Shown one piece after another: positions 2,414-62,208 of a stretch of 64,000 nt of DNA. Under the pieces are notes generated by a model that was given only the letters and a program-made list of their open reading frames with translations, ran no database searches and was not told the origin of the DNA. Origin of the DNA: Antedon mediterranea (lineage: Eukaryota; Animalia; Echinodermata). Each line of letters starts with the position of its first letter. Position 1 is the first letter of the stretch. A program made the position numbers and the translations under genes. Location: NCBI RefSeq assembly GCF_964355755.1, contig NC_092673.1, positions 24,239,648-24,303,647 of the forward strand, given 5' to 3'.

Positions 2414-3078
2414 TTATGGAATGGCCTTGAATTTGTTTGCATCATTCACAGAGTAAAATGGATATGTGTACTTTTTTCGGCACCCTCGGCGTATCATATT
2501 GTATATATTGCATCTGTTACGGTACTGCTCTGGCCAGTCATCCTCTTCGCTGCTATCACCATTTGCTCTATAAACTATTGCTGGCCCATATTTTTTCCAT
2601 CCGGTATTTTTTCTTCCAGCTTTTCCTCCTCCTCCTCCTCCTCCTACTACTTCTCCTCCTCCTCCTCCTCCATTGACTACCGCATTCCCATTTATTCTTT
2701 GTCCATTATTTACAGTCTGTTTTTTATTTGTCTGTGTTTCAGTTTTAACTATTGACGTACTACCTCCAGCGTTACTACTGATGACAATGCTATTGTCAGT
2801 TGCCTCTTCGGCTGTTATCTGGACTTGAGGTTCTTCAATTTCTGTGACAACTTCTACGTTTGTCTTGTCATTTTGCGTAATGACTTCAATGACGCCTGTT
2901 GGCAGCTTAGGTAGAATTTCTGGTGTTGTGATCTCTTCTCGTATCAGCTCAAAGTCTACTACGGTTGCCATATTGCCCAGTACAGTGATTGCTTCGCTTA
3001 ATGGTCTAAAGCCATGTGCATCAACAGTGATAGTGTATGCACCGGGAGTGAGAAGCCTCCAATAGTCACCGTCAATAG
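2414..3078 (-). CDS. Carboxypeptidase exon 7: end of transthyretin-like domain plus long low-complexity tail
   Basis: Acceptor ttttctag, phase 1. Reads (A)IDGDYWRLLTPGAYTITVDAHGFRP... to TAA at 2416-2414. GDYWRLL-PG is the M14B C-terminal domain signature. Confidence 0.9.
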
Positions 3079-3903
3079 CTAGAAAACATAAACAAAAAAT
3101 ATAATAAGTGAGACTCAGTTTTCGTTATCTATTTTTATTTCAGTGTTTTTCATATTGCGTAATTAACTTTTTAAAAGTGTGTCTGTTATAACGTCATTAT
3201 ATCAAGGAACGTTACATAACCGTAGGCTACTATTACATATATTTTAAAGTACAATATCGGCTGGTGGGGCTAACAGTAATCATCCACACCCTCTAAAAGA
3301 GACAAATTGTCCGACATATTTCGTTTGACGGCCTGTACTTAGAAACACTCGAGAAACTAAAATTGTATGTCAATTGGCCCCACGGTGGATAGCCCTTAGG
3401 AAGTCCTTATGTCTTTATAGTCACTCAACATTTAATCATTATTAAAAGAAATAAAGGCATGTTTTCTAAAGTACCGTTTTGAGACAAACATGTTGTTGTA
3501 GGACCGCCGTTATACCATCAATCCTAGGCCTAATAAAGAGTCAGTCGTTGAACTCGAATAAGGACAATATCAGCAACAGACGACTAGAAACCAATCTAAA
3601 ACATTCATTTTTAAAGACAACAAATTGTTCCGTATCCGGACGTATGAAGAGGTGTTGATGGAAAAGCTGCGCTAGTCAAGTTCTTACTTTCGTCAAATTC
3701 TTTCGTTATTAAATTAAATCCACAAGAAATAAATTTATCATAAATCATAAAATGATAAAACATGTATTATGCCGCAGGTGAATTCACACGCATTTTACAC
3801 TTTGAAGCTACATGCCTAACCTAAATTTTATATTCGCGTTCCAAACATTTCTCAAAAAGTTTTCATTAACTTTCATTACTTTTTATATTGTGTTTTCACA
3901 TAC

Positions 3904-4009
3904 CTGTTGTTATATCATGTTGATACCTAGGACCTGTGATCTTGACAACAGCATTGGCAATCGGATTGCCTTGCAGATCTGTGACTACTCCTTTCACGCC
4001 CATGTGAAT
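3904..4009 (-). CDS. Carboxypeptidase exon 6
   Basis: cccttag|IHMGVKGVVTDLQGNPIANAVVKITGPRYQHDITT|gtatgt; phase 0 to 1, matching both neighbours. Confidence 0.93.
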
Positions 4010-4619
4010 CTAAGGGGGAGAAATAATACTAAAATAAATAGTTTTGTTTGTAACATATACTACGCTAACTAATATTAGGCTTCATAATTTAGAAAAAGAA
4101 ATGAGGACAATTTAGAGAAATTAGGACCGTCAATTAGGTCATCATTTTTTAGACAGATCAATAAGGGCTCAATGTCCTCTGTGATTGGTCGACGTATTTT
4201 TGTCTCAGTCATTGAAGAATCTCATCATTGAAGTGTAAGTTAGATATGAAAGATGTTAAGATAAGAGATGTTTCAAGAGGAATTAGCTAATGTGAACAGG
4301 AGTGAGTAGCAGGCTTGCTTCATTCAACTTAATAATTATACTACTTATGAAACTCTTATATTTGTATCAAGAGATTTCCTAAAAGGTATTAGATTCCCAA
4401 TACATTACTTCTATTCGAAACAACTATTTTCATTTTTTCCAGATAGAATAGATGAAATGTTAAAGTGTTATTTGTATGGAAAATGTCAAATTATAAGATA
4501 GTTTAAAGATCCTAATTTAAAAGAAGTAGCCTAATAAAGCATGCATGCATCGGGTTACCATAAGGTGTACTTTGTATCGCAGTAGCACTATTTCCACAAA
4601 TAAATTATCATCACTTTAA

Positions 4620-4859
4620 AGCTTTGTCTACACTATCAAATGTGATGTGAAAATATATGGACATGATGTCATATCACTACTATATTTAAGCATATTGGTA
4701 ACATGATTGTTTTTGTTACTGTGTATATTTTTTCTTTGTTAAATTTTTATGAATAGTTATGTCAACTTAATCATTGTTTACAATAAAGGAATCACACTGC
4801 CATATTTGGGCAAATCGCACTTTTTTTTATCAAACTAGTTTGATAGTGTAGTCAGAGCT
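4620..4859. mobile_element. PIF/Harbinger-type (Tourist-like) MITE, family A
   Basis: TIR AGCTTTGTCTACACTATCAAA ... TTTGATAGTGTAGTCAGAGCT with TAA/TTA flanks. Related copies at 29344, 54165 and 60451. Confidence 0.75.
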
Positions 4860-4885
4860 TTAGCACAAACAAATGTTATACTCAC

Positions 4886-5025
4886 AGCTTCTATATAAGA
4901 TAACAATGCTTCTTTGTTAGCGTACCATTTATTTTCAAGATCTTCTTCATTCGGAAATTTTTTACATCCAAGTTCCAGGGTGATTTCAAATGCATTTGAT
5001 GCTAAGTAGTTATAATCTTGCATAC
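4886..5025 (-). CDS. Carboxypeptidase exon 5 (catalytic Glu in ITLELGC)
   Basis: tttaag|(G)[46 protein letters not shown]|gtgagt. Confidence 0.95.
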
Positions 5026-5525
5026 CTTAAATTGAATTTCAATAAAGAAAATGTATTTAGTGTTTTAATCGACTTCACCTTTTAAATTACCTTGGACGAT
5101 TTACAACACGATTTTATAGGCATGTATTTTATCAAAGTATTATTATAAATATGGATTTGAGTTTAAAGAGTAGTTCCAGGTTTAACATTTCTATGTTTAT
5201 TATAAATATAAACTTCATGATGCTTCTTCTGCTTCACCGCTATCGAAAAATAAGTGGAGTTATTTAATGTTGTTGAAATGTTTCAGAGCATGTTGAACTT
5301 TGAGCTATACCATATAAGTAAAGTAGGCCTGCCTATGCCGACTGAGGCTACTTGTGTTATCTTCACTTTTCCTTGTCATATGTTTATTACCCTGCACAAC
5401 TATTTGTAGGCCTGTAATAGTATCCCTCTCTCAACCGGGTTGTTCTAATTCGACATCAGAAATGCTCAAAGGTTCATGAGGAATACATGGTGAAATAAAT
5501 GATTTTGTTTTGGTTACATACGTAC

Positions 5526-5820
5526 CTCCTTCTACACTGTACCACGACGCGCCGTTAGTGATTCCGTCTGGAAAGCCTTCTCCATAGCCAAAACATGATT
5601 TAGGCCTAGTGCTTAAAGTTTCATGATTTTTTGAATATATCAAAGAAAGATGGCGGAAAACAGCGTCGTCTGGAGACATACTGTAGAAGTAGCGACCCAT
5701 TGGATCACGTGATTTATCATACGGGTAGTTGACAACCATTTGGCCATCGTGCATGTTCGCTGAGAGCACAAATGGGTGCCTCTGTATCCATCTCATTATT
5801 GCTTTTGTCTCTGGTTGAAG
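5526..5820 (-). CDS. Carboxypeptidase exon 4 (third Zn ligand His)
   Basis: ctgcacag|LQPETKAIMRWIQRHPFVLSANMHDGQMVVNYPYD...GITNGASWYSVEG|gtacgt. Confidence 0.95.
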
Positions 5821-6448
5821 CTGTGCAGAAAAACATTAGTAATCATAAATTGAAATGCTTTATCATATGCCTAATATACAATGCTTAATATACAGACACA
5901 CACATATTAAGCCCATTAAGTGGATACTTCCCTGTAAAAACGAGGGACAATACCGTATATTTTAGCATTCAGGGAACATCACTATAAAGGTTTTATTTTG
6001 TTGGGTCCCCAGTGTTTCCCTTTAATAGCTAGGCGTTCTATTGTACTCTTGTAGAACTTAAACGAAATTGAAATGTTCACTTTATGATTTATAGATCATC
6101 TTTCTGATATTATTTTCCAGGGACAACATGGATAGTTTTAGGCCCCACACATACCTGGAACCAAAGACAAGTTTAGGAGTAGGGGTGAAATACTGGTCAT
6201 GCAATGAGACACTTTGGCGTTTGTTTAAGAGTATCGCAAAAAACATAGGGCTTAATTCGCATTGACAGAAATGCGTTTTCATTGAACTTGCAAACTCAAC
6301 TGAACTGTCTTAGTTCATTTTAATAGTGAGCTTAGATATATAACCAACTGCCTGTCGCGTTACATCCATTGACAGCTGTCTAATTGCAGTTTTATTTGAA
6401 AAGAAATCAGCAATAAATCTTTAATTAGAGTTTTAGTTTACTCAGTCC

Positions 6449-13150: not shown

Positions 13151-15689
13151 TTATTGTGCCGCTAAAAAAAACCCCCTCAGTCCCATGCATGCCCAGACCT
13201 ATGTGTCTAAATGTTGTCGACTTCATTATAAACCATAATGCATGTGAGGAAATGTCTGTGTTTATTACACTCAATCGTGTTTCGACCTAATTATGTGTAG
13301 TCGTTTGACCTGTGTTTTCCAATTTCCTAATAAAATAGTTCACACTATGTACAAAGTGACTTGTTTAAAACAAAAATAAATTCAAATATTGTTTCATCGA
13401 ATATTAAGACCGACAGACAGCAAGGTTGTCTGGAAAATTCGCAGAAAAAGTGTAAAATGGTTATACTAGGCCTGGTTTATGGTTTATTCTTGATATTATC
13501 ATGCTTAACACAATTTGTGGTTTTATTATAATACTGTATTAGTAATTTTTCCTATTTATGTTGTGATGGAAGGAATATCGGGCTAGCATATGGAATGTAT
13601 GGATTATTAGAGATGGTTAGATAAAGAACTTGTTACACAATCAGCAAGTCGATTGTGGCTAAGTGAATGCTTGGGACCCAACCAGAATGTTCTGTTTCTA
13701 ATTAAAGATGTATTGGCCTCTAACCCCCCCCCCCCCCCTCCCCCACCCCAAAAAACAACATAGCAAATGAAGATGAATAAAATCTGACTTATTGCAGTTT
13801 TAATAAAGTTATTCAATTCTGTAAAAAAATAATTAATTAGTTAATTTTAACCAAAAACAATATTTTTTTTTTGCGGTTATTACATCTTTTTAGGTAAATC
13901 ATTTTTGTTTTAGATCCAGTTTTTTGTCAAAGTGAAAAACTATTACGCGATATTAAAAAGGCATATTCAAAAAAAAAATATCTTTAAAGGATGATTGGTA
14001 ACACAATTTATAAACACATAATTTACACACATACACAAAGCATCTAAATATATTTGCAAAATAAAAAAACACTTTATTTAAATGCTTCTAATTTAAACTA
14101 TTAGCATTTTCATTATTTTTGTTTATGTATTTGATAAATGTACAAACTACTGTATTCAAGAAAAAATACTGAACTACGTGGTTAAAAGTTCGTTAAACAA
14201 CAAAAACAACCGGACTTTATATATCGTCGTATATAGCCGAATGAATTACCTCCGGAGGCCATATTAGAGTGGATAATATTGAAAGGAAACATGAACTTGT
14301 GAACTATAATTATGTGTCGATAGTTAAATATTACAATCCAAAATATGTATGTAGACATAAACACTGCTTCATTGCGAATGTCGTCATAAACAAATCTTAA
14401 ACGGTGCAAAACTTGTTAAGACTTTAATTTTTAAAATGGGGTTATGTTATGGCGCTATACCTATAACCTAAATAATGTGGTAGAGTAGGTCTATATAATA
14501 AATATGAACAAAATAGCTAGACCAACGCCCTAGGCAAGACGACACCATTAAATCAGATGATAGTCTGATAATAAGGAAGTTATCAGGTTCCCGCCAATTG
14601 GGGCGGGATGTTTAGCAACGCTTCCTCTAATCGATGTCAAATTGAGGACTATATTGGTATATTTTAGTAACGTAGTATATTTCAGGATTTTGAAACAGGC
14701 AGATATGGGGCGGGGGTGGGCCAAAACATTGTTTAAGTGAACATCCTTTTTTTTTAACTTTAATTTTTGGGAATTTGGGGACGACTTCACCTTCCATTGG
14801 ATCAGCCTACATGATGACCGAGGTTATAAAATACTTTTGACTGGAGAAAGTAAACCGAAGATGTTTCTAATTGAAGGATCGGAAGACTTAATTTATCCCC
14901 ATATAAAAACATAACTATGGCCTCTAAAACAAAAAAATGCCTGCTGTTATATTACTGGCTATTATCATTATCAAGATGAAGATGTAATACCTAATAAATG
15001 TTTTTGTAATTATGTGTATGGTATTATTAGAGCCATAAAATGAAGGAATCTTTCTCCTGTGGATATTATCTTCTCAAGATATACTTCTTGTTTTGGCACT
15101 TTGAAGCGGTGTTAATCATGCATATCGGCCAAATCTGTGGTTGATTGCATGTGTAAAAAGGTTATAAGTTGACATCAACAATACATGAATAGTGTATGCA
15201 GAGCAATATGCAGGATTTGATTAGGATGGGTGCGAAATTCTATAATTTATATTGGGCCCAATTTCGTACTTTGGGAGGGAACTGAGTAACCTGGGATATG
15301 GGGTGGGAGTGGGTTGTTCATGGAGCAATATACATAATAATTAATTCGATTGATTTTCATGAAGCATGTATTTATTGTGTATTTTTTGGATGTTATCCGT
15401 AAAAATCTGATGATTGACTCGTGATTATATTACTTATTATTATTAGAAGGCTGGGATGGTCCTTTTTGAAAATTGAAATGTGGTGCGGGGCCAGTGGTGG
15501 AGGTGCGTGAGTGAGGGAGGGAACGCGCGATACGTATGTGTATTTCAACAAAACCTTGACAATGCGCATCGCGTGATGAAGCGCAGTACGTCATGAATGT
15601 ATCTTAGTAACCGCATAGTAACATTACAACAACTGATCTTAACATTTGAGATTGAACTTTATCTGACAAACTCTTCGTAAAAACCGGCA

Positions 15690-15712
15690 ATGGAATCGAA
15701 AAAAATTAAACG
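15690..15712 (+). CDS. Orphan basic protein copy A, exon 1 (MESKKIK-R)
   Basis: gcaATGG start and CG|gtaagt donor; identical in copy B. Confidence 0.75.
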
Positions 15713-16134
15713 GTAAGTCAATTATTACAGGATGATTTGTTACGAATAAACTATTTAGTGTGTTGTACAAGTTTTAAATCAAAATCTTGAAAGTTATAAT
15801 TATCGGAAACCAATGAGTTGGTAGAGAGATAGATTAGGCCTAAGGCCTAGGCTAACCTCCTACTACTCGCTAACTGCGGTACAAGTATTCTACAATATTA
15901 TTAAGAATCTTGTTCCATATTTCATTAAACTTGTTTTTTTTTTTATTAACTGTTATAGGAATAAATGTTTTCATTTATTTGTTTTAAATGTATATTTTTA
16001 TTCAGGTATTTACTTAGTTTGAATTACATTGTAGGCCTATATATGCGCGTTGCTGACAGTCAGTGTATTATAAACATTTTTTTAGATTAAATATTTACCA
16101 TAACATTATTATTATTATTGAATTTACATTACAG

Positions 16135-16214
16135 TTCTTCAAGAATCCGTGGTGATTATAGGAGAGAACGAATGGCATCACGCCCTCGAACTGGTTCTGA
16201 TTATTCTCTACCAG
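16135..16214 (+). CDS. Orphan basic protein copy A, exon 2
   Basis: ttacag|...CCAG|gtaggc; 80 nt, phase 2 to 1; reads SSRIRGDYRRERMASRPRTGSDYSLP. Confidence 0.75.
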
Positions 16215-16366
16215 GTAGGCATGGCGTCTTTTTTTCAACCATCAAATAATTATTATCATTCACTTTATGTTCAGATTATTATGTTGTTCATTCGCATTGG
16301 TTGGGTTTAATACAAAAATAAATTATAGCCTATATATTTATGACTTTGTAATTTCTTATTTTAAAG

Positions 16367-17031
16367 AGAGAAAGGAGTCATCTGGTGACAGGACAATCCC
16401 TCAAGTTGACAACAACAAAAAGAAAACCCAGAGGAAGCCCAAAAATCGACAGGGAGAAAGGAGTCTTCTGGAAATAGCCAATCCATCCGGGCAGACTAGC
16501 CTTCTCCAACAATTACGTACCTCTAGTCTGTCTGGAAGGAATTTGATTACTGCTGCCCAGGAGGAGCAAGGCCATGAATCTAATAAAAGATCAAGTTTTC
16601 TTCCAAATATTCAACAAGGCAGGACGTCGTTGATCAATCAACCCACTACGAGTGACATCCAATGTATTTTGGAAAATAACATTAACCAACGAAATTCAAA
16701 GAAAAGGGAAAAGAGGTCTAAGAAGAAGGAACAGAAGGCATCAAAGAAAAAACCAGAAGATTTTGAAAGTGTTGAAAGACCAGTTTGTTTCGAAGACACT
16801 GACATCGTACTACAGCTCTCCATACCTGCACCACGGCGTGATGCGTATCTTACCAAGACCGAAATAGACCAATGGGGACAACGATCGAGTGACTTGGAAC
16901 CACTCGAGGTGGTCCCAAAACAACCCGGCAAACTAAAACAAAACGTTTGCTTCAGGCAGAAACCAGGAAGGCAAGAAGCTGTAGAAGACTACTACATGCT
17001 CCATTACCTCAATCACAAAATTTCCCCCTGA
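16367..17031 (+). CDS. Orphan Lys/Arg/Gln-rich protein copy A, exon 3 (total 255 aa)
   Basis: Acceptor tttcttattttaaag, phase 1, joins the long ORF at ERKESSGDR. The three exons sum to 768 nt. No recognisable domain. Confidence 0.8.
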
Positions 17032-17574: not shown

Positions 17575-18065
17575 ACATTTATTTATTCAACAATGGCATT
17601 ATACAGTATAGTATAATTATAGGTGTGTACATAAATAAAAACATAGTAATAAGCCATCATTTGGGGTCTTCTCTAGAAGAAAACAAGTTTCTTGTCTCGA
17701 GAAAGACCCCAGAAACAATACACATACATTTAAACTAATACAATTTACTACATAAAATAATAAATAAAAACAAAAACGATGAAATAAAAATAGTTACTTT
17801 CAGTGTACTACAATCATAATAATATTAAAATTAGTATAAAGAAATAAGATATTTTTTTAAATTTTTACGAAAAGTATAAAGAGATTTAAAATGCTTTAGT
17901 TTATCATCAAGATCATTTCAGATTCGCGGTCCTGAAACAGAAACAAAATATTCGGAAATTTTCAGTCTAAAAGGAGGTACATCAAGATGCTGAAATTTAT
18001 TGTCGATACGTAAATAATGTATTAAATTCATGCTTTGCCTGACTGCTTTGAAGAAATAGAGATGT
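17575..18065 (-). mobile_element. 3' fragment of an L2/CR1-clade LINE between the two orphan gene copies
   Basis: Minus strand reads ...QHLDVPPFRLKISEYFVSVSGPRI*NDLDDKLKHFKSLYTFRKNLKKYLISLY*, the typical GP.IWN.L...F...LK.YL end of ORF2. It is followed by an AT-rich UTR and a gaataaataaa tail. Confidence 0.7.
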
Positions 18066-18853
18066 GTTAGGCCTTACAGTACAGTAAAACCGAATAAGGT
18101 TTCTGATTTTATTTGTTTTAAATATCAATGAATTGCAGCGTAATTAGGCTATACATTCTAAATGAAATTTTTCATTCTAAATGACATCTTGCTCCTTAAC
18201 TAATGTTATTCCTAAATGTTAAACTCCAATGACATAACATAGAGTATAAAGAGAAATTTATATGGCGGATATTTATAAGGGACGTCAGCTTTTGTTTTTG
18301 ATTCTATCCTAAACAATACTGTTCGTATCAAACGCCAGCAGAGAAGTAGCTTTAATGGTAGTTCAGCCGTGGCTGAGTTGTTCCTCCTCCTTTGGGTTAA
18401 TATCAAAAAGTGTGGTTCCTGTTTTTGCTATGACGTAATTCAGAGAGTCTATGACACTTTCAAACAATGGATCATTATTTAACATTAAAAATATCGTGTG
18501 TCGTTGACTGCCAATTTGTTTCCTCCTCGTCCGTGAGATGTATTATTGGTGAAAATGTAACCTATACACAAAACTACGATGAAGTATTTTCAAAAACCAC
18601 CATCCAAACGTTCGGGGGAGAGAGAGAGGGGGTGGTGGGGGAGAGGAGAGGGGGGGGGGAGTGGAGAGAGAGAAGGGTGGGGGCGCGCGATACGTATGTG
18701 TGTATTTGAACGAAATTTCGAAAATGCGCATCGCGCGATGAAGCACAGTACGTCAGTGTATCTTAGTAACCGCATAGTAACAGTACAACAAAATTAATGA
18801 TATTAACGTTTGAGATTGAACTTTATCTGAAAAACTCTTCGCAAAAACCAGCA

Positions 18854-18876
18854 ATGGAATCGAAAAAAATTAAACG
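18854..18876 (+). CDS. Orphan basic protein copy B, exon 1
   Basis: Same ATGGAATCGAAAAAAATTAAACG|gtaagt as copy A. Confidence 0.75.
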
Positions 18877-19302
18877 GTAAGTCAATTATCATAGCACTAT
18901 TTGTTAAGAATAAACTATTTAGTGTGTTGTAAAAATTACAGAAGTTTTAAACCAAAGTCTTGGAAGTTATAACTATCGGAAACCAATGAGTTGGTAGAGA
19001 GATAGATTAGGCCTAAGGCCTAGGCTAGCCTCCTACTAACTGAGGCATACTGTTATACAAGTATTGTACAATATTATAAGACTGTTGTTTCATATTTTAT
19101 TAGGCTTAGTTTTATTTATTTGTTTTAAATATATATTTTTATTCAGGTATTTGGTTTGAATTACATCGTAGGCCTATATACACGCGTTGCTGACAGTCAG
19201 TGTATTATAAACATTTTAGATTAAATATTTACCAATAACATTATTATTATTATTATTAGTAGTGGTGTTATAATTATTATTATTATTTAATTTACATTAC
19301 AG

Positions 19303-19382
19303 TTCTTCAAGAATCCGTGGTGATTCTAGGAGAGAACGAATGGCATCACGCTCTCCAGCTAATTTTGATTACTCTCTACCAG
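19303..19382 (+). CDS. Orphan basic protein copy B, exon 2
   Basis: 80 nt with the same splice sites as copy A; reads SSRIRGDSRRERMASRSPANFDYSLP. Confidence 0.75.
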
Positions 19383-19551
19383 GTAGGCACGACGTCATTT
19401 TTTCAACCATCAAATATTATCCTTAACATCAGTCCTAAATATAATTCACTTTTTGTTCAGATTATTATGTTGTTCATTCGCATTGGTTGGGTTAAAATAA
19501 AAACAAATTATAGCCTATATATTTATGACTTTGTAATTTCTTATTTTAAAG

Positions 19552-20210
19552 AGAGGAAGGAGTCATCTGGTGACCGGACAATCCCTCAAGTTGACAACAA
19601 CAGAAAGAAAACCAAGAGGAAGCCCAAAAAGCGACAGGGAGAAAGGAGTCTTCTGGAAATAGCCAATCCATCCGGGCAGACTAGCCTTCTCCAAAAATTA
19701 CGTACCTCTAGTCTGTCTGAAAGGAATTTGATTACTGCTGCCCAGGAGGAGCAAGGCCATGAATCTAATAAAGGATCAAGTTTTCTTCCAAATCTTCAAC
19801 AAGGCAGGACGTTGTTGATAAATCAACCCATGATGAGGGACATCCAATGTGTTTTGGAAAATAACAATAACCAACGAAATACAAAGAAAAGGGAAAAGAG
19901 GTCTAAGAAGAAGGAACAGAAGGAATCAACAAAAGAACCAGAAGATTTTGAAAGTTTTGAAAGACCAGTTTGTTTCGATGACATCGTACCACAACTCGCC
20001 ATACCTGCACCACGGTGTGATGCATATCTTACAATGACCGAAATAGACCAATGGGGACAACGATCGAGTGACTTGGAACCACTCGAAGTGGTACCAAAAC
20101 TGCCCGGCAAACCAAAACAAAACGTTTGCTTCAGGCAGAAACCAGCAAGACAAGAAGCTGTAGAAGATTACTACATGATTCATTATGTTAACCACAAAAT
20201 GTCCCCTTAA
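19552..20210 (+). CDS. Orphan Lys/Arg/Gln-rich protein copy B, exon 3 (total 253 aa)
   Basis: Paralogous to copy A with an in-frame 6-nt indel; the stop codon is at the homologous position. Confidence 0.8.
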
Positions 20211-21294: not shown

Positions 21295-21885
21295 ATGTCA
21301 CACCTTTAATTTTGATGCTTGTCTTCGTTTGCGCTTTTAATCTCTCAACATATCCTGATTAGAAAGCGGCCGATTTTTATAAAGTAAGATCATTTAAGAT
21401 AGTCGAGTTAATAATAATGTAGGCTTACACTGTAACCGTCGTATTGTTGACTGGCTTGCCTCCTCACCAGCGTGTAGGTTGCTGTTAATAATGTTGTACA
21501 CTATTTGTCCGTATGTATCAGAGTAAGCTATACTATACGTACGGAGCATGCCTAAATAGCGCAACTTAAGGATGTCTGACGTGCGCTGCACGTAATTTTA
21601 CTAATCACTAGAAACCTTTTACCAAAGGCCAAGTCGTTTCGCCCCAATAAAATTAATCAAATTTATTTATTTTGATTTAAGGACATAGTAGAAAAAAATG
21701 GTATTCTTACATGATGTTAAATTATGTTATAAAGTGTTTTCACTCCTATTAGGTTATTGCTTGGAACTTTTTCTTGTAGGCCTACTTTTTCTTGATATTC
21801 TAGCCAATCAATATAAGGCTATAAGATCAGCCTAATATACATTCAAATACACTTATTTTTCTTAGAAAAACACCACTGATATAGT

Positions 21886-23676
21886 ATGACGTCGTTACTA
21901 GACTTACAAAATCAACTTCGTGACTTCCCTTGTCATTTTATGTGGGAACTTGAAAAGAAGTCCATCAAACAATTCGGATCCCCTATAAAGCTTATTGACG
22001 AGCATATCAGCGATTCTCCTGCTATGGTAATTGAGGGATTGTTGTTCAAAAGCTACCTTTTCTTTTCGGAGTTCAGAGGAAATGCGGAAAAGAAGAAAAC
22101 CGAATCAATGAAATGTATCAAAGATGTCCGCGATAGAATTCTAAAACAAGATGCATCAAGACAACCTCATATCAACGGTTATTTACTGATTGCTATTGCC
22201 CTTGAAGCCTGGTTTGACAGTCGCGACCAGACCAAACTGGAGGGTAACATTTTGGAGCTTCGAAGGCCGCTTGAATCACTTTATGTGAAGGGATCGCCAG
22301 AGCATAATATGTTTAAAGGAAGTATCCAAGCAACAAAGGGATTTGCCTTGTCTCGTGTCGGCATGCATCGATATACAGAGAGCATTACAGAGTTTGAAAC
22401 AGCATTAGAATTGTGTCCAGTAGAAAATAATTGGCGCTTTTCAATTGGCCTTCTGAGATGGAGGTTAGCTAAAGACTCGGCTAAAAACAGAAATCAAGTT
22501 TGTGATGGTATGAAAGACGTGCTGAGCATTTTCTCTAAGGTTTTAAAAATGAATCCTAATCACAGCTATGCATTAGTTCTTATTGCAGAAATAAGACGTA
22601 GACAGCAGCGTTATGATGAAGCAAAATCCTTTGTAAATTCAGCTCTGGAAAAAATTCCAGTAAATAGAAAGATATTGGGTGAAGCAATAGGAGTTTACAG
22701 AAGGATGGCATATTTTCAAGATGCCATAAGAGTTGTAAATTTCGCTGAAAAATTGAAAGAGCCGCCCAGTTCTTTCATTTATCACCAAGCTTATCTTGTA
22801 TACCGGGATATCTCGACTCCAAAATATCGTGGTGATCCTTCTCTAAAACTAGATTATCTCACAAAAGCAACCGAGGCGAATCCATCGAATCTTTACGCAA
22901 GATGTGACTACGCGGAGGAACTTATTGCCGCAGGGAAATACGATGAAGCTACCGATTGTTTCAACCAGCTCCTGGAAAATTTTAAAGACGACTTTGAGTC
23001 TGTGATTCGCATCAATCTTAACTTTGCTTGGTTTCTCAAAAAACAAAAGAAATGGAGAGAAGCTAATGCTAAATTTCAGAAGGCTGTTGATGTGGCATTA
23101 GATGAATGTAAACAAGATGGTGGTCCACCCATCATTTTCTTTAAAGAGGTTGATGAGAGGGTTAAACAATCAATTCAACAGATCGAGAAGTTCCACGAAG
23201 GAGTGCTCAGAAGAGATCCCAGAAATGTTACATCAAGATTACAGCTAGCAGAATTAAAAGACAAACTTGGCAATAAAAATCGTGCGTGTTGGCACTTTCA
23301 AAAAGTGCTTGACTTGAAGTTAAACATTGACAAAGAACGCGAATGGGAAATTCTCCAATATTTAGCTAAAGTCAAGACGAAGAATGGTATGCTTGGTGAC
23401 GTTGATAGCATAATTGAAAATATGACAAAACTGAATATTTCGCATCCTAAGTCTGATGTTATTAATGAAAGCAAGGCAACACTAGCCGTGCAGAAAGGCA
23501 AGGTTGCTCTACGTGAGAATAAGAGAGAAGATGCTATTAAGCTGATTTTAGAATCGGTTACACTTGGTAGCCTTACAGGAGCAAAACTTCTGCTCGAAGA
23601 GGTGAAACAGATGAAAAGAAACGATAGAAACTTCTACATATATTGTGCCCACATCGATATTTGTAATTGGAAGTAG
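21886..23676 (+). CDS. IFIT-like tetratricopeptide-repeat protein (596-aa ORF, intronless CDS), nested antisense in peptidase intron 1
   Basis: N-terminal LRDFPCHFMWEL matches the IFIT CHFTW motif. GFALSRVG..RY..SI..FE.ALE..P, RWRL, P..SYALVLIA, VYRR and SSFIYHQ occur in IFIT order, followed by extra TPRs. Acceptor ttttcttag lies 20 nt before the ATG. Confidence 0.85.
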   Translation: MTSLLDLQNQLRDFPCHFMWELEKKSIKQFGSPIKLIDEHISDSPAMVIEGLLFKSYLFFSEFRGNAEKKKTESMKCIKDVRDRILKQDASRQPHINGYLLIAIALEAWFDSRDQTKLEGNILELRRPLESLYVKGSPEHNMFKGSIQATKGFALSRVGMHRYTESITEFETALELCPVENNWRFSIGLLRWRLAKDSAKNRNQVCDGMKDVLSIFSKVLKMNPNHSYALVLIAEIRRRQQRYDEAKSFVNSALEKIPVNRKILGEAIGVYRRMAYFQDAIRVVNFAEKLKEPPSSFIYHQAYLVYRDISTPKYRGDPSLKLDYLTKATEANPSNLYARCDYAEELIAAGKYDEATDCFNQLLENFKDDFESVIRINLNFAWFLKKQKKWREANAKFQKAVDVALDECKQDGGPPIIFFKEVDERVKQSIQQIEKFHEGVLRRDPRNVTSRLQLAELKDKLGNKNRACWHFQKVLDLKLNIDKEREWEILQYLAKVKTKNGMLGDVDSIIENMTKLNISHPKSDVINESKATLAVQKGKVALRENKREDAIKLILESVTLGSLTGAKLLLEEVKQMKRNDRNFYIYCAHIDICNWK

Positions 23677-24184
23677 TCTCGAGAAAAACCAAAAGTTATT
23701 ACATGAATTAAAAGAGGATGTCACACAATTACTTTCTGCCAATTCTGTATGTGTCGTTTTACAAGATCTGAGAAAGAAACAATTTGAAATGGAGCGCAGC
23801 GTACTAAAAAATAGCGCAAATCTCTTGACAACACAACTTGAGGTAGTTCACAAATGCCGAAAAATCCTCAACCAGACAATGGCTAAATTTAGAGATCGTC
23901 ATTATGGAAACGTGGACCAATGTGACTATTTCAAAATTTCAAAATGTTCCTCTGAAAACATTGAAGAGGAAGTCAGGAAGAAACTCGAGAAGGGGTATAA
24001 GTGGAAAAAAACAAAGCCTACTTTTAAAAAGCGAGTACCTTTTACTGTAAATCGTTAACATTTCAATGTTTACGTAGAAGATTGCCGATTATTGTTAACG
24101 ATAGCATCGAATAACGTCGACAGGAAAACAGGCTTTAATGAATTGAAAGTAAATAAGATACAATATACTTTTGTGTCTGTTTGA
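23660..24184 (+). pseudogene. Frameshifted and stop-interrupted C-terminal continuation of the IFIT-like ORF
   Basis: A +1 frame overlapping the ORF end is open to TAA 24056-24058 with coding-like helical sequence. The same frame is open for 41 more codons to TGA 24182-24184. Confidence 0.6.
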
Positions 24185-25106
24185 CGTTTTCCAATCTTAA
24201 TTCCTGATGATGCTGATTTTCATTTCTAATTTCCTATAAAAATGTATAGGCCTACAGTAGGCCTAGTAAACTTTTGTGTTGTATTTACTTAATCCACTGT
24301 CCGTTTTTTACATACATTACTCTACTAGGGACATATCTTTACTTCAACTGTGGAAGGATCTGTTCCCCTTTGTTAAATTATAAAAGGTCTCCGGTTCTTC
24401 TACAGCTCTTTATGTTGGTCGGTTGGTTGGTCGGTTGGTCGGTAAACATTAACTTGAGCACGCGACTGCAGCCATGTATATGGCCTTATCCGATGTAATC
24501 TGCAATTTTACTTACAAGGGACCAATGTTTAGTGATTCGTGGACTGCGCGGTTTTTCTTTTTCGTACGTTAGGTGTATTATTGGTTAAACTTAATGTAGC
24601 CTAACAATGTTATGGATCTCACTAGTTCATTAGTCCCGTTCAGCTATTCGAATTACCATAGCGCTACAGTATTTCAATACCGCATATTAATTGGAAAAGG
24701 AAAAAACACATTGCGTATCAGCTACCGTTCATTCGGGTGGATTGGGTAGTCGTTATGTTTTTTTTTTTTGGTGTAATATAAGGGTAACATGTATAGGCCT
24801 ATAATCAAATAAATACCCACTAGATAGAAACATATTTAATATCAAGAAGTGATACAATACAGTAAAAAATATCACTTGGCAATTTCTATTATCACAAATT
24901 ACCGGTACAGTACTGTTATAGAACTATACTGGATTGGAATGATTATGATTCGAAAGCGGACACTATACAAAGTTCAACTCTATAAACCAGTCGACTGATG
25001 ATGTGAGGAGGAAGCGGAAACGCCCATAATAAGTTAAAACGTTCTAATACGTTTGATGAGATGGGTTATAAACCAATTAAACATAGCCGGGTGAAGCAAT
25101 ACTGAA

Positions 25107-25497
25107 GTTACTGTAGGCCTACATTAGTAGAGTTACTCGTTACTTTAGGCCTAGCATACGGTATTAATGATTACGTTACTGTAGGCCTACATTAGTAGAG
25201 TTACTCGTTACTTTAAGTCTAGCATACGGTATTAATGATTACGTTACTGTAGGCCTACATTAGTAGAGTTACTCGTTACTTTAGGCCTAGCATACGGTAT
25301 TAATGATTACGTTACTGTAGGCCTACATTAGTAGAGTTACTCGTTACTTTAGGTCTAGCATACGGTATTAATGATTACGCTACTGTAGGCCTACATTAGT
25401 AGAGTTACTCGTTACTTTAGGTCTAGCATACGGTATTAATGATTACGTTACTGTAGGCCTACATTAGTAGAGTTACTCGTTACTTTAGGTCTAGCAT
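25107..25497. repeat. Minisatellite, 68-bp unit x about 5.75
   Basis: Unit gttactgtaggcctacattagtagagttactcgttactttagg(c/t)ctagcatacggtattaatgattac at 25107, 25175, 25243, 25311, 25379 and 25447. Confidence 0.96.
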
Positions 25498-26619
25498 ATA
25501 GCCTACAGTATTTCAGTAGTGTTATTTTGTTTTACTGTAGGCCTATAGTACGAATAAGTACGACAAAATAAAGAATAAAATACGAAAGAAATTCAAGTAC
25601 AAGATACAAGTCTACTTTATTTACTTTAATAATATAAATAAACCATATGAATATGATGGGAGCTAAAACATTAAACCGTTTCTTTAATTATATTTCACTT
25701 TAAGTATATATTTGGAAATAAACCATTTTTCAGTTTGTTATCTGAAGATTATTAATACACGAGCCTGTTAGTTACTAGTCTAGTTTTCTGCTTGAGTCGA
25801 CTGATGAAATAAGACGGGCAAGGAAAAATATAAAAAAATGCTACATTGAATTATTCTAAAATAGCTAAACAGGATATTTAAAACGTATGTATTCCAACCC
25901 CTCCAACATAACTTGGGTTTTTTAAACCTTAATTCCGGAATGTCTGCTGCATAGTCTAAAGACAAAATTATAAATCCGGTTTGTTAGATGCCAACTTAAC
26001 AACTTTTTGGTTCAGTAGCGTCAACTACCATTATATCTTTATCTTTACAGTCACGTAGGCATATTTAGGTTATATTAATCCCATAAGTTATAATCTTCCC
26101 TACGCTTCCCTGTCCGGGGCTGCAGTTGCTGCCTCTGCCTTCACGCCATGTAACCTAACATGTTAATAAATATGCTTAAGATAACCTATTCCTTTTACAT
26201 CACTCCTTTATGGATAATCAGAGATAATATTTGTAAATGATTTTATATTAGATTTTATATATTTTAATATTTGGCAAAACTATTGTTTTGTCTGTCAGAA
26301 AATAATATATATATATATATAGATAGAATAAAGATATGTTTTTGACCGAAATATAGTTCTTTGTGAGTCGATTGATTTCCCAGTGGAATGTTTTCTTTGT
26401 AGTAGGATACTTGTGTTGTCTCTTGAATATTAGATCTTTGTCTACTGTATGAAATTTAATTTTAAGATGCTGTAATCTATGAGAACATCTTAAGGAGATA
26501 TGACCTTGATCGTGACTTTACACTAGTATCAATAGGCTTAAAATGAGGATGGGGTTGGTTGTAATCATATGATGCCCAATTTTCTTCCGATGTCCGTGCT
26601 GGCTTATATAGGTATTTGA

Positions 26620-49840: not shown

Positions 49841-50388
49841 AGTAGTGGCTTATGCATTTTTTTTTTAGAACAGGACTGAGGTCTTGATTAAATACATTAT
49901 TTGATTAAATTTATTCATAATCGTATTAATTTAGTAAATTCTCCACGATGTAATTAATTTCATCTACTACGATGTTTAATTCATTTTTAAAAATTAATAC
50001 AGATTATTGTTCTTGTTTATACATATTAATATAAATATTCATGCAAAGTTATGTTATAATTTCTCAATATCTAATTTAATCAATGTGAACATTAATGCAC
50101 CATAGTTTTTATACGATTTATTAAACTGTTGCTTGATATTTATTATTTATGTTGATCCATGTTTACAATTATTCTGTTTATATCACCATTATTAATGATT
50201 GTGTGAGTTAATTGAAAGAGCTTGTTTATTAATCGTTCTGTCTTAAAGAACACAAGTTGTGGAATATATTGAAGTTAAAAGAAACTATGTGCATCGATAA
50301 AATTGTCTGTCAATTGCGGTAGACAACACTAGTCATGATCATTCATACCTGCAAGTTGCTTAGCTAAAGAGAAGAGGCGACAGAGTCC

Positions 50389-50904
50389 TGAGAATTGCAG
50401 AGGTTCAACTAGTGGTCTTAGAATTGCCTAGACTCAACTGGTAGTCTGAGAATTGCAGAGGCTCAACTTGTAGTCTTAGAATTGCCTAGACTCAACTGGT
50501 AGTCTGAGAATTGCAGAGGCTCAACTTGTAGTCTTAGAATTGCCAAGACTTAACTGGTGGTCTGAGAATTGCAGAGGCTCAACTTGTAGTCTTAGAATTG
50601 CCTAGACTCAACTGGTGGTCTTAGAATTGCCGAGATTCAACTGGTGGTCTGAGAATTGCCAAGACTCAACTGGTGGTCTGTGAATTGCCGAGAATCAAAT
50701 GGTGGTCTGAGAATTGCCGAGAATCAACTGGTCTGAGAATTTCCAAGACTCAAATAGTGGTCTGAGAATTGCCGAGACTCAAATAGTGGTCTGAGAATTT
50801 CCGAGAGTCAACTGGTTGTCTGAGAATTGCCGAAACTCAACTGGTGGTATGAGAATTGCCGAAGCTCAATTGGTGGTCTGAGAATTGCTAAGGCTCAACT
50901 GGTG
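50389..50904. repeat. Minisatellite, 29-bp unit x about 17.5, alternating A/B dimer at the left end
   Basis: Unit tgagaattgccgagactcaactggtggtc. Early units alternate gcagaggctcaacttgta and gcctagactcaactggt. Confidence 0.95.
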
Positions 50905-57399: not shown

Positions 57400-59120
57400 C
57401 TTGTTAATAAGGATTCTACTGCATATTGTATAGTTTTAAAAGTAGAATCCCTATTTGGTAGCACTATTCTTAGCACATTTTCTGAGAAACCAACATAGTC
57501 TTGGCCAACCTCTGTTAAGGGGACAGTTACACTGTTGGGTCCTGAAGAGGACAGTGTTTCTCTTCTCTGTATGCATATACGGTCAAATTCGTAATACCAG
57601 ACACCTTTGGGCTGGCTAAATATGTCTGGTTTTCTAGAAAGTAAAGATTGCAATATTGTAAAATACGCTGACGATACTGTAATAAAATAATTGGTTTTCT
57701 TTGCGATAGTAAGCATAATGTAAATGAATTTGTTAATGAAGTTGGAAGATTTGTTAATTGGTGTGAGGGTATGAACTTAATACTTAATATTACTAAAACC
57801 AAAGAGATGATAATAGATTTTCGTAAAACCACAGTTGAACATAATGTAATAACTGTTAAAGAAACCGAGGTGGAAAGAGTAACCCAATACAAATACTTAG
57901 GTACTATAATTGACAATAGATTAAAATGGGAGTCGAACTCTCTCATGATTTCCAAGAAGGCATCTCAAAGGCTTGACTTTCTCAGAAAACTCAAGCAAAT
58001 TAGAGTTGATAACACTATTTTAATTCTATTTTATCAAAGTATTATTCAAAGTATTTTATCTTTTAGCATTGGATGTTTTTATGGTAACTATACTGATAAT
58101 GATAAGAAAAATATTGAGAGACCACGTAAAATTGCACAACGTATTATTAAAACTGAACGCCTTGTTCATTTATCTATGAAAAGAGTGATTTTAAAAAAAG
58201 TAAACAATATTATGAAAGACCCCACTCATCCGTTACATTACTGTTATAACTTAAAAAATCAGGTATTAGGCTACGACCTCCAAGAGCAAATCTTTGTAGA
58301 ACTAGAAAATCCTTCGTTGTAAATAGCATTCTTTTTTTTTAATTCTAATGTAAGACGATAATGCAATTTTTAAATAGTTTTACATTTTTAACAGTTTTTC
58401 ACGCTGCTGCTCTAGCCCGCTATGTCCCATTAGGACTACTCAATCAGAAGCTAAAGCAAGCAGCATTTATAGTTCTAAGGACGACAGTTTTGCGAAAATG
58501 GAAACTCCACTATAATTTATTGATCCCAGCTGCTACAGTAGACCCAAAAAACATCTGGGAAAAGAGTCTATTAGGACATGTCATGCTAAAATTACAAATC
58601 CCAAAGCATTTCTGGTATATTCACTGTCAGATATTCATTGAATTACTGTATTATCGAAAGAGTCCATTAAAGTTTGTGTTTGTAACTTGACCTTAGCAAT
58701 AAAATTAACTAAAGTGACAGAAATTGAGTATTCACTTCTGTAACAAAAACATAATATTTATTCACATATAAAAAGAGAAAAGAAACCCAAAAACCATTGT
58801 CTGACAGACAATTTAAGTATTTGTTGCTTTAAATTACATTTTTTTCAGGTAAAATAACTATTATGTGACAATAAAATGACACATTCAAAAACATTTGAAA
58901 TAAAAAATATTTTTTAATAAGCGAGCAGCGTTTTTTGTAAGAAATATTTCTTGTTTATTTTTAACTTTTTATCTTGTATTTTAATCTGTTATAATACTGC
59001 ACGTTTTAAATTGTTGCAACATTTTTTATGTTTGTTTTTTATTGTTGTTTTAATCTACCAAGCAAAGTGAATTTCCATTTTTATGGACAAATAAAATTTC
59101 TTGAATCTTGAATCTTGAAT
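57400..59120 (+). mobile_element. Degraded Rex1/Babar-like LINE: reverse transcriptase C-terminal half, 3' UTR (with inserted HINE) and tail
   Basis: KYADDTV at 57661; LNITKTKEMIIDFRK, VERVTQYKYLGTIIDNRLKW, KKASQRLDFLRKL, DPTHPLH; frameshifts; ends atggacaaataaa-(cttgaat)3. Left boundary approximate. Confidence 0.88.
58395..58954 (+). mobile_element. Helentron-associated (HINE-like) element, copy 2, inserted in the LINE 3' UTR
   Basis: Same termini and body as 40060-40658, lacking about 50 bp internally; T-rich flanks. Confidence 0.75.
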
Positions 59121-60606: not shown

Positions 60607-61646
60607 TAATAAAAATCTTAAGATTCTCTGTTTTAGTCAAGTCTGATACAAAACACATACAACTAATATTTTGAAGATCACATATTTTGCCACTTAATAA
60701 ACAGCTATTAGTCTTTTGCAATACTCTCGGCTCTGATAGATATTTGATTATATGTAGTTATACAGTTTTAAGTATTTATATTAAAGAGTATAGATTCGTA
60801 TATAATTCATCTAATGTTCCTCCTAGCAATATGTATGTTCTCAAGTGTTAATCAGTCTTTAATGATCTTATTTATGACTCCTTTACCTTATTACCTTTAA
60901 TAACCAGTATACCTATAGTATATACAAAATTCTAAATAGAGGATATTAATAATTATATTTGAATTTGAATTTGATAAATGTTGATATATGTATTCGCTTT
61001 ATCTACATCTTTTTTTCATCGCATACTGTAGCTCGGATATGATGCATTTGTTATTAAATCATAGCTATACAATCTCTGCACTTTTGCAGACAAACTTCAA
61101 ACATGAATGATTGTTATAGGATGATTTATAACGGAGAATGTCACAGGTTACATTAACGTTTCAATATCGGATATTTTTACCTACAACGAAAAGGTCAATA
61201 CTCTTATTGGAAACTGTATACTATAAATAAAATCATTATTATATTCCATAATTCATGATGTTCATTTAATTATTAACTTTTCATTAAGAATCGTCTGTTT
61301 TGTGTCATAGCATTTATAGATTTTTTTTTCTTAAACCAATTATTCATTGTGAGGGAAGAGAGAATAATCTATATTTTGTAATAGTGCATGCTATCTTTAA
61401 TCATGAGTATCAGTATTTTTATTGATCTTTCTAATGTACTTAGTATTAAACAAAAAAAATTACCAGAAATTTTAAATAGTAATAGCATTCATTTCATTTT
61501 CTTGTTTAGAAATAACATTTATGCAATTGTACAGTGTAGTGGTCATTAGAAATCATTTCATTAAGAAATTAAGTCCACCAATTTAATGAAGATGAGCTAT
61601 TATCACACAGCATGTACAAAATCAGGGCTATTAGTGCATAACAAAT

Positions 61647-62208
61647 TCCCCAACACATGCCCCAGTAAATGTACCAGCACATGCCCTAGTACATACCCCA
61701 GCACATGCCTTAGTACATGCCCCAGCACATGCCCTAGTACATGCCCCAACACATGCCCTAGTACATGCCCCAACACATGCCCTAGTACATGCCCCAGCAC
61801 ATGCCCTAGTACATGGCCCAGCACATGCCCTAGTACATGGCCCAGCACATGCCCTAGTACATGGCCCAGCACATGCCCTAGTACATGCCCCAACACATGC
61901 CCTAGTACATGCCCCAACACATGCCCTAGTACATGCCCCAACACATGCCCTAGTACATGCCCCAGCACATGCCCTAGTACATGCCCCAGCACATGCCCTA
62001 GTACATGCCCCAGCACATGCCCTAGTACATGCCCCAACACATGCCCTAGTACATGCCCTAATACATGCCCAACACATGCCCTAGTACATGCCCCAACACA
62101 TGCCCCAACACATGCCCTAGTACATGCCCTAGTACATGCCCCAACACATGCCCCAGCACATGCCCCAACGCATGCCCCAGCACATGCCCCAACGCATGCC
62201 CCAGCACA
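61647..62208. repeat. Minisatellite, 12-bp unit x about 46 (acatgccc-tagt/cagc/caac), mostly as 24-bp dimers
   Basis: Directly visible array; it generates the TCPS, HVLG and ACTR repeat ORFs in the ORF track. Confidence 0.97.

Follow-up and report, generated by a model that had tools for sequence, protein, structure and literature searches.

IFITs are usually viewed as a family of jawed vertebrates that emerged together with interferon and works without catalysis. In RNase L, Ire1 (KEN) and animal NLR-type proteins, a sensor is fused to an RNase or caspase effector; such families show lineage-specific expansion and swappable effectors. The gene described here encodes an IFIT-fold protein of the feather star Antedon mediterranea. 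It lies in a stretch of 64,000 nucleotides of contig NC_092673.1 (positions 24,239,648 to 24,303,647; the window, to which all coordinates refer) as a single uninterrupted open reading frame (ORF; 21886-23676, + strand; 1.79 kb, 596 amino acids), in a setting with few genes and a GC content of roughly 33%. The intact protein of this family probably (about 0.58) clamps the 5′ end of non-self RNA and in this way activates the HEPN-type RNase fused to it or, in one paralogue, a caspase. The window allele carries a one-base frameshift ahead of this effector.

Residues ~1-500 of the encoded protein form an IFIT-fold tetratricopeptide repeat (TPR) part, with CHFMW at residues 16-20. More TPR helices extend up to C593, followed by three out-of-frame residues and the stop codon. 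The top phmmer match in the PDB is human IFIT5 (E 4.4e-13; residues 11-378 of the query, a single colinear stretch); IFIT1 is matched at E 2e-8. The match to an IFIT-family profile is colinear and full-length, and includes the N-terminal CHFxW subdomain (profile 4-487, E 1.6e-59); it is used instead of an earlier match, which was circular (vertebrate rows inside the profile). The modelled protein has the IFIT superhelical clamp fold; the alignment behind this fold included vertebrate IFITs. Membership of the IFIT family is thus supported by sequence, profile and predicted fold. An earlier note, made from the letters alone, had proposed an IFIT-family relative with colinear IFIT-like blocks in an invertebrate host. 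These proposals are borne out, the last by the closest proteins, which come from the crinoids Antedon mediterranea and Anneissia japonica. What had been missed is that the family has a HEPN-like domain fused at its C-terminus and that the present allele is truncated ahead of it. A generic TPR protein was rejected. The idea of a generic TPR or TTC22-like scaffold with a chance likeness to IFITs is favoured by Pfam (generic TPR families only), by the lack of an outgroup in the tree described below and by the accessible part of a 2013 study (PMC3688568), which has IFITs originating in jawed vertebrates and judges candidates from acorn worm, lancelet and cyclostomes not to be IFITs. It is largely refuted and very improbable.

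The protein shares with human IFIT5 and IFIT1 (PDB 4HOT, 4HOQ, 5W5H) the whole fold over about 450 residues, the CHFxW start, the K150, R186, R260, H287, Q288 and R294 positions and likely one large coding exon. A pyrimidine tract ending in AG, 20 nt 5′ of the ATG (21853..21865, + strand), is likely the splice acceptor of this exon, as read from the letters; a further last exon would be present in the family. The differences are as follows: the window protein is about 20% identical, has K-x-x-G-E for Y-x-x-R-Y and holds about 100 extra residues of TPR helices; the family has a predicted C-terminal effector domain; interferon is not reported in echinoderms. A 2026 preprint (10.64898/2026.05.30.728932, accessible part) describes homologues of interferon in jawless fish and, among invertebrates, in lancelet only.

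Pocket residues were mapped on P0133, a mammalian IFIT5-like protein; the mapping agrees with the phmmer alignment. As the earlier alignment by eye had it, K150, R186, R260 and H287/Q288 of IFIT5 correspond to R157, R193, R272 and H300/Q301, and KILGE stands in place of the Y250/R253/Y254 helix (K262/G265/E266). In addition, R294 corresponds to R307, and K257 is replaced by G269. According to a table of PMC9677429 (partial text), ten IFIT5 positions have a high impact in pull-downs, and K150M and R253M strongly weaken binding. Three of these ten are identical and one is conservative in the window protein, the alignment being uncertain at T37 and F337. Position 250 is K or R and position 254 is E in six crinoid paralogues; position 253 is G in five of them. 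Of 36 invertebrate rows, 35 have a basic residue at 186 and 27 have one at 150; Q288 is found in 31 and Y254 in none. The deep half of the channel is therefore conserved and the 250-257 helix lineage-variable. This helix is unlike that of IFIT5 in every invertebrate row, and its change is therefore a family trait, not private to the window copy. K262, one helix turn from the lost R253, may act as a stand-in for it, and an altered RNA-end preference is possible. An IFIT-fold channel that now binds a protein, a peptide or a small nucleotide instead of an RNA end would fit the Gly at the R253 and K257 positions, the Glu at Y254 in this subfamily and the effect of the two IFIT5 mutations. Basic residues however remain at 157, 193, 196, 262, 272, 273 and 307, and RNA is also the predicted target of the fused effector; such a change of ligand is quite improbable. 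Separate pocket remodelling is seen in hemichordates: Trp occupies the K150 position in six of seven rows (P0022, P0015, P0043, P0044 and P0058 among them).

An extra C-terminal domain is found in crinoid, hemichordate and brittle-star-group relatives. It is predicted to fold as a HEPN bundle of helices, a late one of which ends in a His motif. The motif N-x-x-K-H is present in 13 of 16 tails, three of these 13 having R-x6-H, and is lost in the other three. HEPN RNases (HepT toxins, Las1, Csm6; TPR-HEPN fusions DZIP3/hRUL138, C6orf70, LA2681) share the predicted bundle, the late-helix His motif and, in the fusions, the position C-terminal to TPRs. The family described here differs in that its motif mostly lacks Arg, its partner is an IFIT-type clamp and its tail has no Pfam match and no sequence-profile match to any of the HEPN families listed. 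Foldseek with the tail gave weak Hsp70 rows only. A tail sequence search among longer proteins gave three Anneissia proteins only; a standalone bacterial relative was not searched for. A tail dimer prediction, for which the alignment was not used, scored 0.00 and gives no evidence either way. In P0014 (Antedon mediterranea XP_071956018.1), a caspase (700-931, QACQG) replaces the tail behind an IFIT-like N-terminal part; this could be a gene-model fusion of neighbours. The canonical Arg is missing in 10 of the 13 motif-bearing tails, motif loss is common among HEPN families in the accessible part of the literature, and sea cucumbers and vertebrates do without the tail. The tail could hence be catalytically dead and serve for pairing, RNA holding or partner binding, next to an RNA-binding TPR part that would block translation by sequestration only. 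Against this, crinoids and hemichordates both retain N, K and H at an overall identity of 22-38%, which suits an active site, and a caspase occupying the place of the tail suggests that this is an effector position; a dead tail is considered unlikely. P0152 (1688 amino acids) is apparently a tandem of two IFIT-plus-tail units, both with degenerate tails.

The ORF given by the earlier note for this gene stands; the gene extent does not, as homology continues in another frame to about 24010-24050. An extra base at 23665 (+ strand) shifts the frame at codon 594. The linker and the first half of the HEPN-like domain follow out of frame (23666..24010, + strand; 56% to P0008 and 43% to P0004 by tblastn; also 46% to residues 591-696 of P0156 with E 1e-30). 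The extra base is present in the window and in the contigs of runs X1 and X2, which cover 23238-24026 with no gap at the shift. Contigs of X5, X6 and X7 are one base shorter at 23665, and their frame stays open. X1 and X2 are runs of one sample, possibly the source of the window, and hence not independent; X5 is another sample with the same species label; X6 and X7 carry another label; 23665 lies outside the coverage of X10. An assembly error was rejected: the X1 and X2 contigs share the window frame, and in three other runs it is precisely this base that differs. The shift is thus a real, polymorphic change. Compared with the window, the contigs of X1 and X5 carry an in-frame three-base insertion at 23595. 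At 23551-23663 and 23838-23905, the X5, X6 and X7 contigs indicate at least two more paralogues elsewhere in those genomes.

The domain homology ends at a high-copy repeat (24013..24136), which resembles a miniature inverted-repeat transposable element and has 12-nt inverted ends (24013-24024/24125-24136; left boundary uncertain, 24013-24027). In 24046-24179, contig depth increases by a factor of about 2000, accompanied by opposite-strand joints. The motif-bearing half of the tail was not found in the window by tblastn or by a hidden Markov model of 14 tails over six frames (best E 0.56); it could be located beyond the window, or have decayed too far to be recognised. The window allele holds no complete in-frame HEPN-like domain with the His motif. 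Besides the frameshift, the terminal repeat and the missing last part, early-ending Antedon database models (P0003, P0005, P0008) would fit a decaying pseudogene allele of a birth-and-death family, whose 596-residue product has no role. In the tail, X5 and X6 share four differences from the window, and every one of them alters an amino acid. Among the differences listed, 3 of 18 changed codons are synonymous in the tail and 6 of 18 in the ORF, vs about 1 in 5 by chance, a weak signal; these counts are too small to distinguish decay from neutrality. Moreover, the 1.79-kb frame is open, the IFIT core is intact and truncation at the border preceding the tail leaves a vertebrate-like protein. Decay of this copy, which is compatible with the RNA-clamp reading of the family, is a serious possibility, though at somewhat less than even odds.

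Starting from the observed homology, fold, architecture and frameshift, the switch proposed for the intact protein would, by analogy with known IFIT and HEPN families, operate as follows. The 5′ end of a foreign single-stranded RNA would be bound in the TPR channel via R157, R193, K262, R272, Q301 and R307. RNA-driven closing or pairing would activate the protein, and RNA would be cut by the N-x-x-K-H site of the HEPN-type tail. The window allele has lost this predicted effector; the 596-residue product, if made, would be a sensor or sequestering protein only, as in vertebrate IFITs, or be en route to a pseudogene. The family would share the sensor-effector plan of RNase L, Ire1 and NLR-type proteins and differs from them by the absence of a kinase, ankyrin or NACHT part; its sensor would read RNA directly.

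The nearest proteins are P0002 (69% identical), P0003 and P0005 of Antedon mediterranea (other Antedon identities: 55%, 43%) and P0004 of Anneissia japonica (46%). The named ones among 28 distinct further matches are from crinoids, a brittle star, sea cucumbers, acorn worms and hagfish. NCBI-predicted proteins of Antedon, Anneissia, Amphiura, Apostichopus, Holothuria, Ptychodera, Glandiceps and Saccoglossus belong to the same family; their names ("IFIT5-like", "IFIT1B-like", "uncharacterized") are automatic, and the window allele differs from them by its frameshift. A quick, unrooted tree that excludes P0035 and P0159 shows five lineage clades and joins the window protein to P0002 and P0003 (SH-aLRT 99). 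A profile search with A4 gave five crinoid proteins and generic TPRs; it therefore does not give the family range, and leaves protostomes and cnidarians undecided. P0094 / P0157 of the hagfish Eptatretus burgeri have a CHFTW start and group with vertebrate-type IFITs, which runs counter to the idea that IFITs are absent from jawless fish.

The top search listings contained no study of IFITs in echinoderms or hemichordates and none of a fusion between IFIT and HEPN, most subscription journals and supplements being outside their scope, nor was any mention found in the accessible parts of PMC9334734, PMC8195603, PMC4887208 and PMC12543323. The IFIT-fold gene is real and already hinted at by automatic annotation of invertebrate IFIT-like genes; the family architecture, with its predicted HEPN effector, appears undescribed. 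The window copy itself is a truncated allele. A true IFIT-fold family in echinoderms and hemichordates, in which many members carry a predicted HEPN domain and one carries a caspase, would imply an earlier IFIT origin. IFIT would then be the sensing part of an antiviral switch made of one protein, comparable with RNase L and with the TPR-HEPN defences of bacteria. More tentatively, and with considerable doubt, IFITs may predate interferon and have begun in the deuterostome ancestor as an RNA-end clamp with a HEPN RNase (a caspase by swapping). Vertebrate IFITs would be the sensor left after effector loss; the effector would have been lost again in sea cucumbers, its loss still segregating as a one-base allele in the feather star.

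No second IFIT copy was found by tblastn within the window. In a scan for interferon-stimulated response elements, the nearest upstream occurrence of GAAANNGAAA is at 17934, 4 kb from the ORF, and the scan is uninformative. Other features of the window include exons of an M14 zinc carboxypeptidase gene (2414-5835, − strand) and a tandem 1.5-kb duplication (15514-17027, 18674-20206; 85% identical). Each copy of the latter holds a lysine-rich open frame of 270-315 amino acids that matches no Pfam family convincingly and may be a duplicated last exon. A fragment at 57672-58322 resembles by eye the end of a reverse transcriptase frame of a long interspersed nuclear element (Pfam match: ALKBH8_N). 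Another repeat of very high copy number is present along with several tandem arrays, at 24414-24487, 25107-25498, 50388-50904 and 61640-62208.
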